A stretch of 53,688 nucleotides of DNA, taken from Patescibacteria group bacterium (GTDB lineage Bacteria; Patescibacteriota; Minisyncoccia; Phycocordibacterales; JACZSL01). Shown here one piece after another: positions 23,098 through 51,445 of this stretch. A model generated the notes under the pieces. That model was not told where the DNA came from and made no database searches. It saw only the letters and a program-made list of their open reading frames with translations. Location of the stretch: positions 1-53,688 of the forward strand of contig JACZSL010000004.1 of NCBI GenBank assembly GCA_022574205.1, written 5' to 3'. A program made the position numbers and the translations under genes. Each line of letters begins with the position of its first letter. The stretch's first letter is position 1.

Positions 23098-23104
23098 TAT
23101 TCAT

Positions 23105-23222
23105 CCCGTTAGAGATAGTCCGCCTCAGGCGGACGTTGATTAACTACTGATAATAAATATACACATATCTTTTTTTGTCTTTTGCTTGATTTGGTATACA
23201 TAACTGTTTAATCTTTAACGGG
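23105..23222 (-). mobile_element. CCCG-hairpin element at the rbfA 3' end
   Basis: Ends cccgttagagat/atctttaacggg; perfect flanking direct repeat attcat (23099-23104, 23223-23228); REP hairpin inside at 23118-23134. Confidence 0.8.
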
Positions 23223-23541
23223 ATTCATTTAATAACTCATCGATGCGCCTACGATTCTTTTCTCCTTCATCAATGGCAAAATCAAAGTAGGGTAGTCGCT
23301 TTAGTCTCGAGTTCTTTTTAACGTAACTCCTAAAATCCGAACGCTTTCTCTTTACAAAGTTAAGAGCATTTTGAGATGCATCTACTGGCATAACACTTAT
23401 TAATATTGTAGCTTTTTTGCCATCCATTGAGAGATCTACACCAGTTACTGTAATGAGGCTGGTGCGATTTGATTCTACACTCAGATATTGTGCAGCTAAC
23501 TGGCGCAGTATTTCCGAAGCTCTTCCACCTCTATCAGTCAT
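23215..23541 (-). CDS. rbfA: Ribosome-binding factor A
   Basis: ITVT.V.LS.D...A.I..S, P...F..D; follows infB. Confidence 0.88.
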   Translation of the reverse strand: MTDRGGRASEILRQLAAQYLSVESNRTSLITVTGVDLSMDGKKATILISVMPVDASQNALNFVKRKRSDFRSYVKKNSRLKRLPYFDFAIDEGEKNRRRIDELLNESR

Positions 23542-23547
23542 ATTATA

Positions 23548-25098
23548 TTACATTTTAACGTGGACAAACCCCACGAGTTCATCACCCTCTGAAACATCGA
23601 CAGATGATTGTATTTCAGCGCCAAACTCGTTGCCCTCCACGACAACTTTTGTAGCAGTTTTTTGTATTTGAAGACTTGTTACTTTTCCCATACCTATTAG
23701 AGACGCACTTCGCAGAATTTTTACTTGTTCACCAAGTTTTAACGAACCCTCTGTCACACTACCACCAATGATTGACTTATCCTTTGTTCGACTAAATTTC
23801 TTTAAGACTTTAACTTTTCCAGTAGTTTCCTCAACATCGATTTTTGGAGTACGTGACTTAATAGCCGCAAGAAGCCACTCTGCAAGCTCATAAATAATCG
23901 TAAATGTCTTAATTTCGATACCTAGGCGCTCTGCCATCTCCTTTGCACGAGCGTCAACGCTGACATTAAAGCCTACAACAATCGTGTTTTTGTTTCCCCC
24001 GGCAGTCTTAATGTCACCCTCGCTTATTGTACCGACACCACTCAATACAATTTTTACATCAACACGCTCGGTGTCAATCTTTTGAATCTCATGTTGTATT
24101 GCTTCAATTGTTCCGGAGACATCAGTCTTTATAATGACCGGAATTGTCACTTTTCCATCTTCAACATCTTCGTTGTCACCATGGCTACGTGGAGCTTTTT
24201 TCGAAATTTTATAAGCGAGAACGGCAGCCTCGGCTTCTTTCTTTGTGTCAAATGCGGCAAAAGTGGAGCCAGCACTTGGCACATCGCTAAACCCGATGAC
24301 GCGAGCCGGAGTTCCTAATTTGGCCTCCTTAATGCTTTTACCCTGGAAATCTTCCATAATCCGAACTGGTGCAATACATTCTCCAACAACAACACTCTGC
24401 CCACTTTTCAACGTACCATCTTTTATTACAAGTGTTGCTGAGATTCCTTTTCTAGGTTCAACGTGAGATTCAACAACAACACCCTCTGCATTTTTACTTG
24501 GGTCTCCTGTAAGTTCTTCAAGGTCGGTCGCAAGGAGTAAAAGGTCAAGGAGCTCCTTCACACCTTCACCAGTCTTTGCGGAAATAGTTGCATATGGTAC
24601 GCTACCGCCCATTCCTTCAAGATAGATTTCGTTTTCAACGAGACTACTCTTTGTTCGTTCAATGTCAGCGCCAGGTAGATCAATTTTATTTATTGCAACA
24701 ATATAAGGAAGGTTGGCATTTTCGATTGACTTTAGCGCTTCGATCGTTTGAGTTTTTACACCGTCCTCTGCAGACACGATAAGGATTGCGATGTCAGCGG
24801 CTTGTACCCCCCGCAAACGCATACCAGCAAACGCTTCATGTCCCGGAGTATCAAGAAATGTTATTTTACGCACCTTTCCATCTTCCCCAATATGTTCAAC
24901 TTCATATGAAGAAATGTGCTGAGTGATGCCGCCCACCTCACGCTCAACCACATTTGTCTTTCGGATATAATCAAGAAGTTTTGATTTACCGTGATCTATA
25001 TGACCCATCACAGCCACAACCGGCTGACGCACCACAAGAACCCCAGTACTCGCTGGTTTTGTATCTCGAATCGAATTGTTCGCGTGTGTTTTTGTCAT
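23548..25098 (-). CDS. infB: Translation initiation factor IF-2 (short form without long N-terminus)
   Basis: GHIDHGKS, GGITQHI, DTPGHEAF, NKID. Confidence 0.95.
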   Translation of the reverse strand: MTKTHANNSIRDTKPASTGVLVVRQPVVAVMGHIDHGKSKLLDYIRKTNVVEREVGGITQHISSYEVEHIGEDGKVRKITFLDTPGHEAFAGMRLRGVQAADIAILIVSAEDGVKTQTIEALKSIENANLPYIVAINKIDLPGADIERTKSSLVENEIYLEGMGGSVPYATISAKTGEGVKELLDLLLLATDLEELTGDPSKNAEGVVVESHVEPRKGISATLVIKDGTLKSGQSVVVGECIAPVRIMEDFQGKSIKEAKLGTPARVIGFSDVPSAGSTFAAFDTKKEAEAAVLAYKISKKAPRSHGDNEDVEDGKVTIPVIIKTDVSGTIEAIQHEIQKIDTERVDVKIVLSGVGTISEGDIKTAGGNKNTIVVGFNVSVDARAKEMAERLGIEIKTFTIIYELAEWLLAAIKSRTPKIDVEETTGKVKVLKKFSRTKDKSIIGGSVTEGSLKLGEQVKILRSASLIGMGKVTSLQIQKTATKVVVEGNEFGAEIQSSVDVSEGDELVGFVHVKM

Positions 25099-25258
25099 AA
25101 GAGTAAGCAAACGCTCGTAACAGAGCGGAGTGTGTCTTTTGATTATTGGTCATTTCACTATGTGTGTGAATTGGTTTGGATTATACATTGAAATCACATT
25201 TTTGCAAAAACATTTTTTGGTATAATATGAACATAATAACTTTAGCTATCCGTAGTGT

Positions 25259-49254: not shown

Positions 49255-50001
49255 ATGAGTCCTATCTATATAATTGTAATCGCCATAGGTGTCCTCGTTT
49301 CCGTTATACGGCAAGTTAATCAGTATGAGAAGGGTGTCATGCTTACACTTGGAAAGTTCACTGGTATCAAAGAGCCTGGGTGGCGATTGGTTATCCCGGT
49401 TTTTCAACGAATGATAAAAGTCGATATGCGCATAAAGGCAGTCGATGTGCCGGACCAACGAGCGATTACAAAAGACAACATTTCTGTGGGAGTAAACGCG
49501 GTTATTTATTATAAAGTTTCGGATGCCGCCAAGGCAATACTTGAAGTAGAAGATTTTTTTCATGCTGTTAGTCAGCTCGCACAAACAACAATGCGCAATG
49601 CAGTCGGCCAAGTAGAATTGGACGATCTTTTAAGTAAACGAGACGAAATCTCCGAGAGGATTCGAAAAATTGTTGATCATGCTAGCGATGAGTGGGGAAT
49701 TAAAGTAGATAATCTAGAATTGAAAGACGTCGTGCTTCCTAAGGACATGGAGCGTACGATTGGAAAACAGGCTGAAGCTGAGCGAGAAAAGCGCGCGGTT
49801 ATTATTAAAGCCGAAGGAGAAGTGATTGCCGCCAAGAACATGGCAAAGGCGGCACACACACTTTCATCAGAAGTTGGGGCACTTCACCTTCGCACCCTAC
49901 AGTCGTTGAACGATTTGAGCAGCGACCAATCAAACACTGTTATTTTTGCTGTGCCGCTTGAAATACTTCGGGCGTTTGAAACGTACAATACTAAAAAGTA
50001 G
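49255..50001 (+). CDS. SPFH/stomatin (slipin) family protein
   Basis: ITKDN, AQTT.R, WG.KV, QAEAEREKRA. Confidence 0.92.
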   Translation: MSPIYIIVIAIGVLVSVIRQVNQYEKGVMLTLGKFTGIKEPGWRLVIPVFQRMIKVDMRIKAVDVPDQRAITKDNISVGVNAVIYYKVSDAAKAILEVEDFFHAVSQLAQTTMRNAVGQVELDDLLSKRDEISERIRKIVDHASDEWGIKVDNLELKDVVLPKDMERTIGKQAEAEREKRAVIIKAEGEVIAAKNMAKAAHTLSSEVGALHLRTLQSLNDLSSDQSNTVIFAVPLEILRAFETYNTKK

Positions 50002-50179
50002 TGTGGCCATTAAGGAAAAGTCATTTCGCAATAAACAAAATATTGCTCTTGCTCTTGGTTTTGTGAGCACAGTACTTACACTCATTAATCTATTTCTAAA
50101 CTCTTAAGTACTCATGATTTTATAGTGATTGGATCACGCGCTGGCGTGCTCTTTTTATATACTGGAATTCTATTTCTGC

Positions 50180-50185
50180 TATAAT
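50180..50185 (+). promoter_or_regulatory. Extended -10 (TGcTATAAT) for the dnaX leader
   Basis: 6 nt upstream of ACTTGT, where the element array begins. Confidence 0.55.
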
Positions 50186-50197
50186 GGCCACACTTGT

Positions 50198-50404
50198 CCC
50201 GTTAGGAGTTACGAATATGTTATATATGCAGGCGTTTGACGGTGACAAACTACCAACCATATGTCCATAAATATTAAAAGGAATAACTCTCTAATGGGAC
50301 CTGTCCCGTTAGGAGTTACGATTACTCTGCAGAAAGAATAAATGTGACTAGATGGTATAAACACAATTTAATGAAATATTTAAAAGGAATAACTCTCTAA
50401 TGGG
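50198..50404 (+). mobile_element. Tandem pair of CCCG-hairpin elements (101 + 100 bp) joined by ACCTGT at the dnaX start
   Basis: Identical 17-nt left ends and 25-nt right ends; diverged middles. Confidence 0.85.
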
Positions 50405-51445
50405 ATGAAAGAAGTGCTCTACAGGAAATACCGCCCGAAAAGTTTTAAAGAGATGTTGGGTCAGGACCACATAACAGAAGTACTTGAAGGGTCTATAAGA
50501 CAGGGCAATATTGCACACGCATACCTTTTCTCTGGACCGCGTGGAACTGGAAAGACGAGCATGGCACGCATATTGGCTCTCAGCGCCGGTGTATCACAAA
50601 AGGACCTGTACGAGATTGATGCCGCAAGCAACCGTGGCATCGATGATATTCGTGAACTTCGTGAAGGAGTTAATACTCTTCCATTTGATTCGCCGTATAA
50701 AGTGTACATTATTGATGAGGTGCATATGCTCACAAAAGAAGCATTCAATGCGCTTTTGAAAACTCTTGAGGAGCCCCCAAGCCACGTACTCTTTATTCTC
50801 GCGACAACAGAGTTTGGTAAATTGCCAGAGACAATCATCTCACGTTGTCAGTCATTTACGTTTAAAAAACCTTCCCAAAGCATTTTAAAGAAAATGGTTT
50901 TATCCGTGGCTACAAAAGAGGGTTTTTCCCTTGATGCGCAAGCTGCTGAACTAATAACCTATCTTGCAGACGGATCGTTTAGAGATGCTCACGGTGTACT
51001 GCAGAAAATTATCTCATACTCCACCGATAAAAATGTAAGCGTAGAAGAAGTTGAAAAAGTTACCGGAGCCCCAGCCGGGAAACTTGTAAATGAATGTCTT
51101 TTGGCAATTAACGAGAATAAACTGGATAAAGCGCTATCCGCAGTAAACAACGCAATGAACGCCGGTGGAGACTTAAAGATTTTCTTGAGTCTGCTCCTTC
51201 ACAAAGTTCGATCAATCCTACTTCTTCGCTTCGCGCGTGAACTTAAAAGTATGATTGAGGAACAATTTGGCGAAACCGATTTTAAAATTCTAGAAACAAT
51301 AAGTGCAGAAAAAAACTCAAACATTAACTCAGCTCTCATTATGGAGCTCCTCGAGGCATCTATTAATATGAAGTTTGCTGCAATTCCAAGCCTTCCACTT
51401 GAGCTTGCACTCATGACACATCTATCCGAACAAAAACAAGCTTAA
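50405..51445 (+). CDS. dnaX: DNA polymerase III gamma/tau (short form)
   Basis: LYRKYRP, GPRGTGKT, EIDAASNRG, DEVHML, LKTLEEP, SRC. Confidence 0.95.
   Translation: MKEVLYRKYRPKSFKEMLGQDHITEVLEGSIRQGNIAHAYLFSGPRGTGKTSMARILALSAGVSQKDLYEIDAASNRGIDDIRELREGVNTLPFDSPYKVYIIDEVHMLTKEAFNALLKTLEEPPSHVLFILATTEFGKLPETIISRCQSFTFKKPSQSILKKMVLSVATKEGFSLDAQAAELITYLADGSFRDAHGVLQKIISYSTDKNVSVEEVEKVTGAPAGKLVNECLLAINENKLDKALSAVNNAMNAGGDLKIFLSLLLHKVRSILLLRFARELKSMIEEQFGETDFKILETISAEKNSNINSALIMELLEASINMKFAAIPSLPLELALMTHLSEQKQA

Follow-up and report, generated by a model that had tools for sequence, protein, structure and literature searches.

Hairpin elements at the start codons of a Patescibacteria genome and their candidate GIY-YIG nuclease parent

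Introduction

The window analysed here, a stretch of 53,688 nucleotides (nt) of contig JACZSL010000004.1 (assembly GCA_022574205.1, forward strand) from a Patescibacteria group bacterium, carries twelve short hairpin units, and at nine loci such a unit ends directly at the ATG of a gene, those of ribosomal proteins and of a replication gene included. These units belong to a real mobile family at start codons, with copies that are present in some close strains and absent from others. We read them, at a probability of about 0.6, as transposable elements of the miniature inverted-repeat type (MITEs) that arose by internal deletion from a mobile element of ~273-280 bp, whose only gene encodes a stand-alone GIY-YIG nuclease of 86 amino acids (aa). 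The source genome, G000 below, comprises 649,905 bp in 23 contigs at 41% G+C and is 94% complete; the window is its contig C15.

Hairpin elements in the window

An earlier note on this DNA, made from the sequence alone, had placed twelve units in the window, and all twelve are present where it put them. So are the ends that it described (CCCG(T/A)(T/A)(A/C)G and its inverted copy, degenerate at the left end of the unit at 26557 and at the right end, CTGG, of that at 39783) and its five target duplications (ATGAAT twice, ATGAGT, ATGTA and ATGGA). It had further named nine genes whose starts are adjoined: the nine starts stand, and Pfam backs eight of the products (trypsin-like peptidase, type IV secretion system (T4SS) pilin, L21, RecR, L9, LOG-like, ROK and DnaX), whereas the 'Ada-like' protein beginning at 39879 has no Pfam match. 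In the Pfam alignments, position 1 of the profile falls on residue 1 of L9, residue 2 of ROK and residue 4 of RecR; with L21 included, these N-termini lie 0-3 residues from the element-adjoining ATGs, which are therefore true starts.

The first unit (23105-23222, minus strand, 118 nt) stands between two copies of ATGAAT (23099-23104 and 23223-23228), its gene side lying 7 nt from a tRNA gene (23026-23097, minus strand) with no protein start there. The rbfA open reading frame (ORF; 23215-23541, minus strand) extends a few codons into this unit, where a TAA (23215-23217) closes it; RbfA has probably had its C-terminus changed by the insertion or received its stop codon from it. The next element, at 26557-26711 (plus strand, 155 nt), has a degenerate left end and a duplicated ATGGA, adjoins the ATG (26712) of the trypsin-like peptidase and harbours a nested insert of ~112 nt that begins AAAGCTATAGCTA. 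Before the T4SS pilin gene lies a 203-nt element (30950-31152, plus strand) with ATGAAT duplicated at 30944-30949 and 31153-31158, and the ATG of rplU, encoding L21, is adjoined by a short copy of 62 nt (31644-31705, plus strand) whose left flank, ATGAAGT, does not equal the target ATGGGC. The recR gene, beginning at 32702 on the minus strand, is preceded by a composite element of 219 nt (32703-32921, minus strand), with ACCTGT and a remnant resembling a right end on its far side. Nested within it is a 111-nt copy of the CCCGATAG type (32752-32862, minus strand), inserted at the ATG of a small ORF that belongs to the outer element (ATGAATATA...) and accompanied by 20 nt of filler (32863-32882).

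Further along, ACCTGT and a 131-nt element (together 38364-38500, plus strand) adjoin the ATG of rplI, encoding L9, and a 96-nt copy of the CCCGTACG type (39783-39878, plus strand), flanked by duplicated ATGAGT, adjoins the 125-codon ORF called 'Ada-like'. The LOG-like gene follows a 255-nt copy of the CCCGATAG type (45966-46220, plus strand), whose left flank, ATAAAT, resembles a decayed ATGAA and which contains a nested 112 nt at 46098-46209. The ROK-family gene follows a 111-nt copy of the same type (48241-48351, plus strand) with duplicated ATGTA and an internal 26-codon ORF that ends 8 nt before the ROK ATG. Finally, a tandem pair stands before dnaX (50192-50404, plus strand), made of ACTTGT with 101 nt and then ACCTGT with 100 nt; in the second unit, an ORF of 9 codons closes 4 nt short of the ATG.

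Two smaller repeats recur inside these elements. A ~112-nt sequence beginning AAAGCTATAGCTA(T/C)TATCATTGAAA is nested in five of them (26599-26700 and 46098-46209 in the window; C2:30171, C2:71464 and C14:13057 elsewhere in G000) and holds a 25-codon ORF (MNVKVESLFISNNTN...) whose end lies 8 nt upstream of the gene's ATG. The other repeat, a GC-rich hairpin of 30 nt (CCTGTCTGCGTG...CACGCACAGGCAGA), is present eight times (38384-38413 and 45980-46009 in the window, the others on C13, C17, C2 and C23), six times exactly 14 nt within an element's left end, and is either a feature of a subfamily or a second-order insert.

Ends and target duplication

By pairing ends, 43 copies were curated in G000, and at least two more surfaced later. 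Their consensus ends are (T)CCCG(T/A)TAG... on the left and ...CTA(A/T)CGGG on the right. Arm positions 1-8 are nearly invariant, with the two arms matching in 31-43 of the 43 copies at each, and position 5 co-varies (T:T in 23 copies, A:A in 17, unmatched in 3). Among 237 copies pooled over genomes, the target is duplicated over 5 bp in 143, over 4 bp in 14 and over 6 bp in 6; it consists of ATG, then A (0.72) or G (0.20), then A (0.78) or G (0.20) (n=143), a site written ATGRR below. A filled junction can take the form ATGAA-TCCCGTTAGAG... on one side and ...CTCTAACGGG-ATGAA on the other.

The earlier note had offered two descriptions of this junction as equivalent, a 5-bp ATGNN duplication around an element and a 4-bp TGNN duplication around a slightly different one whose last base rebuilds the ATG. 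The first, with an element that starts with T, fits better, since T directly precedes CCCG in 233 of the 237 copies and a few copies elsewhere have GTG after CGGG. The latter, and one copy that has ATTGA on both sides, belong to other genomes of the Candidate Phyla Radiation (CPR; L158, L122, L145 and L086); they place the base after CGGG outside the element, and non-ATG starts may be targets too.

Empty sites and spread

Contigs of metagenome runs that hold close strains served as comparison sequences, and in them many of the window's insertions are polymorphic, so that the empty sites which the earlier note had proposed to look for in relatives do exist, in precise or near-precise form. The pilin copy has a precise empty site (30943>31153, six shared bases) in two contigs of run X8. 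In the same run, the rplU copy and its left flank (31609-31705) are replaced by 28 nt ending directly at the ATG (31608>31706), the nested 112 nt before the LOG-like gene (46098-46209) are missing (joint 46097>46210), and 38300-38500, with the rplI copy, give way to 12 nt (38299>38501). The same 12-nt form recurs in an RNA-library contig of run X18, and its presence in both DNA and RNA marks a strain difference rather than splicing. The nested recR copy is missing from runs X6 and X8, as a skip of 141 nt (32741>32883) flanked by a 10-nt repeat, and the dnaX tandem appears in a contig of X18 as a single unit, with 107 nt skipped. Within the G000 assembly itself there is a filled and empty pair: contig C16 reads ...AAAAC|ATGACAAG, and C8 adds ACGTGT and 100 nt at that point. 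C8 and C16 are among several paired segments of this assembly that are 88-98% identical (the others being C19:1-1737 with C21:42108-43844, and C6:26265-26967 with C6:27444-28146), which are strain variants or recent duplications.

The family extends far beyond this genome. The end pattern was found in 59 of 201 sampled genomes of the order, representing 53 of 156 genera, and a reversed control pattern in one genome. An exact-pattern scan with one genome per species returned at least 120 stretches, nearly all from metagenome-assembled genomes labelled Paceibacterota/Parcubacteria, Saccharibacteria or Patescibacteria.

A coding relative with the same ends

Longer copies with the same ends and an ORF inside, for which a search had been proposed, exist elsewhere in G000 and in many relatives; as the earlier note had said, no mobilising enzyme lies inside the window. 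The G000 copy, C2:32353-32632, is 280 nt long, shares its ends with the window's 203-nt unit, is flanked by duplicated ATGAG and is followed by a 365-codon ORF. Its own ORF, at C2:32376-32633, encodes 86 aa that match the GIY-YIG family (Pfam PF01541, E 3.3e-18) over residues 1-71; the nearest solved protein is PDB 1ZG2 (BH0048, UPF0213; E 7e-4, residues 2-62). GIY-YIG homologues occur in 156 of the 201 genomes of the order. When the 30 best loci in other genera were inspected, 14 proved to be bounded on both sides by strictly matching ends, at a total length of 273-280 nt, and behind 13 of these stand an ATG and an ORF of 102 codons or more. Several other loci have variant ends that can still be recognised. 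Coding copies were found for all of the TTAG-, ATAG- and TACG-type ends.

The gene is fitted closely into its element. An alignment of 23 copies gives the consensus MxYxYxL...YTGxTxxLRKRxxxHN...YYE...RSRExYLKSGxGKRYLxNRLKRFLSLTG, in which the YxY, YTG, R and E positions are kept. The ORF begins ~20 nt inside the left end, the right repeat codes for its conserved tail KRFLSLTG, and its last bases in 15 of the 23 copies are GGGATGA, where the TGA stop is made of the host ATG and the A that follows. In 9 of the 15 coding copies that keep the duplicated ATG on the far side, where one third would be expected, this ATG is in frame with the nuclease ORF and joined to it without a stop; in the G000 copy a 7-codon ORF from the far-side ATG stops 5 nt before the nuclease ATG.

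Several features tie the short copies to this element. The window unit at 30950-31152 aligns with the C2 copy from end to end at 74% identity, with one gap of ~77 nt that removes the middle of the ORF, and by this alignment is an internal-deletion derivative of the 280-nt GIY-YIG element. The expectation of a nearly constant unit length after removal of nested inserts consequently fails at this unit, whose 203 nt are not a short copy with an insert in it but a larger remnant of the coding element. In genome G124, the last 16 bases are common to the coding copy and the short copies, and 31 of 228 short copies still have GTCGA, which codes for part of RSRE, where shuffles give 7.9. On the strength of the alignment and the shared ends, short copies very likely derive from the GIY-YIG element. 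The two also keep company across genomes: the short-copy pattern, whose length limits exclude the coding copy itself, is present in 20 of the 26 genomes with a close GIY homologue (E <=1e-26) and in 39 of the 175 others (Fisher p 9e-8, counted on related genomes). The nuclease is probably the enzyme that mobilises the family.

Position at gene starts

How the copies sit relative to genes was assessed over the 43 curated copies of G000, 39 of which adjoin a likely gene start. For 36, an ATG comes straight after the end and opens an ORF that has 100 codons or more or that leaves the contig (three of these ORFs have 184, 368 and 222 codons), two adjoin short real genes, for L36 (Pfam residues 1-37) and a MazE/AbrB-like protein, and one, counted among the 39, adjoins a putative ORF of 51 codons. 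The other four are nested in an element, the first of a tandem, 7 nt before a tRNA gene and 6 nt before an ATG. Under a null model that tolerates copies wherever an ATG stands clear of coding sequence, which sets 695 crude starts beside 2,734 ATGs in non-coding DNA, 20% would be expected at starts, and for 34 of 43 the binomial p is 2e-16. In the other genomes, where the retrieval pattern that gave the at least 120 stretches demanded an ATG after the end and set no ORF condition, 128 of 146 evaluable copies adjoin an ORF of at least 60 codons, against 28% of random ATGRR sites in the same DNA. The same stretches hold 17 extra copies found with no flank condition, ten of which have an ATG at one end (six of these with an ORF of at least 100 codons), three a GTG and one a duplicated ATTGA. 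The enrichment at start codons over chance that the earlier note had proposed to measure is thus present in G000 and beyond, and the evidence supports its picture, in which a non-autonomous mobile element finds a safe harbour at start codons, those of essential genes included.

Two accounts of this placement compete. Insertion could strike any ATGRR, and copies could survive only at gene starts, where a rebuilt ATG and a coupling ORF do no harm and imprecise deletion is hard. Several points speak for such selection: ATGRR is the only sequence preference found, the flanks look like those of ordinary gene starts, the genome is ~84% coding and so offers few neutral sites, and not every copy is at a start, ~9% of those in other genomes (13/146) having no following ORF of at least 30 codons and one G000 copy standing before a tRNA gene. 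Set against this, avoidance of disruption by itself predicts only 20-26% of copies at starts, and copies with an intact 5-bp duplication, which are presumably young, are just as concentrated there as the rest (92 of 102 adjoin an ORF of at least 60 codons). The coding parent, moreover, can be expressed only from a start codon, which favours evolved aiming. Retention by selection is a live possibility, if at rather less than even odds, and we lean slightly towards insertion that is aimed at start codons rather than copies merely being retained there.

Other enzymes and other explanations

A second alternative grants transposition and denies the nuclease its part: the short copies would be ordinary MITEs of an insertion sequence (IS) of the DDE type, with a 4-5-bp duplication and an ATGRR preference, the autonomous copy being absent or unassembled and the GIY-YIG ORF a passenger or secondary acquisition. 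Inverted ends and a mostly fixed 5-bp duplication are indeed the hallmark of DDE transposition, 39 genomes have short copies without a close GIY copy, and G000 is 94% complete. Profile searches for transposase and recombinase families in G000, G011, G030, G056 and G047 found Y1_Tnp in three of the five genomes, Phage_integrase in four, DDE_Tnp_1 in one, rve in two, RVT_1 in three and Resolvase in four, and TnpB and IS110 in none. G000 has no match to DDE_Tnp_1, rve, TnpB, IS110, RVT_1 or Resolvase, its recombinase-type genes among the tested families being one Xer-like integrase (PF00589) and one RAYT-like Y1. Not only G000 but also G056, which is 98% complete in 10 contigs and has 16 pattern matches, is without DDE_Tnp_1, rve, TnpB and IS110. 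Nor did a longer parent emerge from the ends: matching ends 420-4000 bp apart that enclose an ORF were absent from G000, where only neighbouring short copies paired in this way, and 887 kb around 120 copies in other genomes held no distant end pair with more than 9 of 14 matching end bases. A passenger, finally, sits awkwardly with an ORF that is built into the ends, its tail being the right repeat and its stop the host ATG, in many genera and with all three end types. We consider the DDE explanation unlikely.

The Y1 gene of G000 suggests a third possibility, that the copies are REPIN/REP-like hairpins moved by this RAYT-like (HUH) transposase. The protein, of 237 aa, has the HUH and Y motifs and is one of only two recombinase-type genes in the genome among the families tested, and a Y1 homologue is present in 45 of the 59 genomes that have the pattern and in 72 of the 142 that do not (Fisher p 9e-4), a weak association. 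The gene itself (C18:235-988) is flanked by two identical GC-rich palindromes of 28 nt, which have no further copy in G000 and do not resemble the element ends; its homologues were found in 117 of the 201 genomes of the order, with at most 14 matches per genome. HUH single-strand transposition is not known to give a target duplication, whereas a duplication of 4-6 bp marks 163 of the 237 pooled copies, and four genomes with 7-17 pattern matches (G056, G030, G124 and G193) have no Y1 homologue. This explanation is very improbable. Least probable of all is that the hairpins are a host-owned 5' leader RNA, regulatory or serving processing to leaderless mRNA, which spread by recombination and is not selfish: the ends are conserved across a phylum-level group, ~10 G000 copies have G opposite T at stem position 4, a pair (G-U) that forms only in the sense RNA, and the arrangement of stop, 4 nt and start is conserved, but target duplications, presence and absence between strains, nesting, tandems and a patchy distribution are signs of transposition, loop sequences are unrelated between subfamilies, for three of four tested RNA folds the stability does not clearly exceed that of shuffles (z -0.85 to -1.9), and a scan of the window for described structured RNAs (Rfam, gathering scores) matched only 6 tRNAs.

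Translation context and small ORFs

Before G000 gene starts there is no enrichment of purines or G, a -10-like TANNNT motif peaks exactly 12 nt upstream of the ATG, where 74 of 516 crude genes have it and roughly 10-29 do at other offsets, and the 3' tail of the 16S rRNA (...GTTCGTGGAATTTTTCC..., on C23, minus strand, at ~24052 in reverse-complement coordinates) is without the CCTCC core of the anti-Shine-Dalgarno. Together these leave no Shine-Dalgarno signal and make many genes look leaderless, which suggests translation without Shine-Dalgarno pairing and with many leaderless mRNAs. About half of the copies have a -10-like hexamer 12-17 nt before the far-side ATG, so that transcripts should begin at or just before the duplicated start codon. 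A preference of the element for leaderless genes was considered and is unsupported, the -10 offsets resembling those of ordinary genes. No outward promoter of the kind that would yield a leaderless mRNA was seen by eye inside the element, in that TANNNT is absent at -12/-13 of the gene-side end and the motifs TATAAC and TCTAAT are misplaced.

The right end of the short copies reads C-TAA-CGGG-ATG, and the conserved TAA commonly closes a small ORF. Of 208 copies, 81 have an ORF of 15 or more codons that begins with ATG and closes at this TAA, and the two neighbouring frames give 5 and 19; the stop-free run upstream of it spans 22.5 codons at the median, compared with 8 and 11 in those frames. 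A separate count over 10 genomes gave 31 of 59 copies with the small ORF against 0 and 4. Each of these ORFs begins in the A-rich loop (its first five codons are 48% A) and continues across the 3' arm. The encoded peptides are unconserved beyond the part that the repeat encodes, so the likely function is the act of translation, and a translational relay or coupling into the host gene seems marginally the better bet. An in-frame extension of the host protein's N-terminus, of the kind made by Rickettsia palindromic elements (RPEs), was rejected: the 111-nt type spans 39 codons from ATG to ATG with a stop between them, and only 3 of 87 copies have an in-frame ATG from which the frame stays open into the gene.

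Proposed mechanism

The full element, which has no visible start signals of its own, would borrow the promoter and start codon of the host gene for its expression, in a chain that runs from the host start signals to the nuclease and, through the AUGA overlap of stop and start, to the host gene. Such a relay would suit an organism with no Shine-Dalgarno system and many leaderless genes. Short copies would be moved in trans. The small ORF that many of them keep stops at the TAA lying 4 nt upstream of the gene's ATG, and its translation would open the stem and be coupled to that of the gene; it is by this opening and coupling, we propose, that ribosomal-protein and replication genes tolerate the insert. 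How DNA is cut and joined is more speculative. Cuts 5 nt apart at each ATGRR copy could free the element with cohesive ends that carry flank bases, and these could ligate into a target cut in the same way, with mismatched overhangs resolved to either sequence.

A number of observations weigh against this reading. The nuclease role is read from architecture and co-occurrence; the genomes behind the co-occurrence counts are not independent samples, 39 genomes with short copies (G011 and G030, for example) have no close GIY match, and 6 of the 26 genomes with a close match lack the pattern. G000 has one intact coding copy with these ends. The 86-aa domain comes without a separate DNA-binding module, and characterised GIY-YIG enzymes are known to make short 3' overhangs of 2 nt, not a 5-nt stagger. 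As regards the target, 74 of the 237 pooled copies have no duplication or a decayed one (ATAAA or GTGAA, for instance), duplications of 4 and 6 bp occur too, ~20 G000 copies and one G056 copy bear AC(C/T)TGT in place of target bases, and the C8/C16 insert precedes ATGAC without duplication, for which a simple staggered cut does not account. As regards translation, the small ORF is found in 39% of copies by the criterion used, its openness may in part go back to the parent ORF, the far-side ATG has a -10 box at -12 no more often than ordinary genes do (24/143 against 74/516), and the RNA data are assembled contigs only, in which transcript ends and processing are invisible and uncovered stretches carry no information.

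Some of the copies with AC(C/T)TGT are preceded by a remnant like a right end, and abutted ends form the palindrome CGGG-ACCTGT-CCCG. Tandem duplication followed by internal deletion would account for the right-end remnants (the 107-nt unit being polymorphic at dnaX), not for the carried 6-mer. The speculative scheme of cutting and ligation described above would fit both classes of copy, those with the target duplicated and those with the 6-mer. The palindrome resembles the core site of a tyrosine recombinase, and flank bases are carried over in the C8/C16 pair. Elements of tyrosine recombinases (IMEX, Tn916-like) have a fixed crossover region of 6-8 bp and encode or hijack a recombinase; here the duplications are of 4-6 bp and always begin at ATG, and G030 has no PF00589 match.

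Relation to known systems

We could not place the element in any described class, and a full-text literature search, with most subscription journals outside its coverage, returned no account of inverted-repeat or GIY-YIG elements at start codons. The nearest likenesses among short repeats are Correia elements, RUP and RPEs, which according to the parts of a 2024 review of prokaryotic MITEs drawn on here are also short, multi-copy and non-coding or nearly so, with terminal inverted repeats, target duplication and hairpins, and lie near or inside genes, RPEs being tolerated within essential genes as these elements are (PMC10969869). The phrase 'start codon' has no occurrence in that review (PMC10969869). 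Known MITEs stem from transposase-encoding IS and are intergenic or, as RPEs, in frame within ORFs; the present elements share with them the terminal inverted repeats, the target duplication and a longer coding element with the same ends, and differ in standing exactly at the first base of a start codon, which they rebuild, and in having as their coding relative a GIY-YIG nuclease and not a transposase of the IS families tested.

GIY-YIG homing endonuclease genes, free-standing or intron-borne, such as I-TevI and the phage seg genes, are likewise selfish genes beside host genes whose presence and absence imply spread. Homing endonucleases combine their catalytic domain with a DNA-binding domain, act at one cognate site and spread by recombinational repair; they are not known to have inverted ends, a target duplication or MITEs. 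The catalytic GIY-YIG domain is what these elements have in common with them; here it is a bare 86 aa, with no added DNA-binding domain and no single homing site, and it is associated with hundreds of different genes, inverted ends, a 5-bp duplication and deletion derivatives. Among stand-alone proteins, UPF0213 and the prokaryotic Slx1-like proteins have been described as a 'minimal stand-alone' GIY-YIG class of unknown function, and in the portion of that source used here UPF0213 proteins are not described between inverted repeats or at start codons (PMC1564403). The closest item in print that we found concerns GIY-YIG ORFs in non-intron insertions of CPR rRNA genes, that is, in the same bacterial group but in rRNA genes, as far as the excerpted text goes; 'inverted repeat' and 'start codon' have no occurrences in the text of that paper (PMC11270868).

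Fixed placement relative to an expression landmark, which avoids disruption of genes, is something that the present elements share with Ty3 and with TnGBS / ISLre2. Those systems aim integrases or DDE transposases at transcription signals: yeast Ty3 goes to the sites where Pol III starts, and TnGBS / ISLre2 to positions upstream of sigma-A promoters. In the present case it is the start codon that serves as landmark, and the ribosome would read through the element. Two further families do not fit. IS200/IS605 and REP/RAYT elements are not known to make a target duplication and have separate subterminal hairpins, in contrast to the duplication in 163 of 237 copies, the true terminal inverted repeats and the unrelated GC hairpins of the Y1 gene. 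Integron attC sites have the core RYYYAAC...GTTRRRY and form an array beside an integron integrase; by eye, the ends CTCTAAC/GTTAGAG do not fit its R and Y positions, the copies are scattered before core genes (rplU, rplI, rpmJ, dnaX), and G000 has only the one Xer-like PF00589 gene.

We give an even chance to the strongest form of the proposal, that this is an unrecognised class of prokaryotic transposon, a 'start-codon parasite' of ~278 bp that inserts at ATGRR start codons and is driven by a bare 86-aa GIY-YIG nuclease, and whose MITEs, hundreds of them before core genes across the CPR, render leaderless genes coupled to an upstream ORF. If true, GIY-YIG would join the short list of enzyme types that drive prokaryotic DNA transposition, and would do so in an element of under 300 bp, among the smallest that encode their own mobility. 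It would also represent a new route to persistence in compact genomes, by occupation of the only position that allows expression without signals of one's own and where coupling keeps the host gene alive. The consequences would extend to translation initiation in the ultra-small, uncultured Patescibacteria that lack Shine-Dalgarno pairing, ~6% of the genes of G000 (39 of ~695) being translated behind a mobile hairpin and a small upstream ORF, and an enzyme that recognises start-codon contexts might serve as a tool. The annotation of CPR genomes would be affected as well, since such inserts displace or mask true start codons, give rise to spurious small ORFs and interrupt assemblies.

Other small GIY-YIG genes, ~40% identical to the nuclease and without CCCG ends, were seen at L050:1996-2193 and L060:5539-5793, both in reverse-complement coordinates, and in G000 at C11:2352-2609 and C20:10549-10749. 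They sit between direct repeats that resemble duplicated 5' parts of tRNA genes, or between other local repeats, an indication that mobile mini GIY-YIG genes form a wider set in these bacteria.

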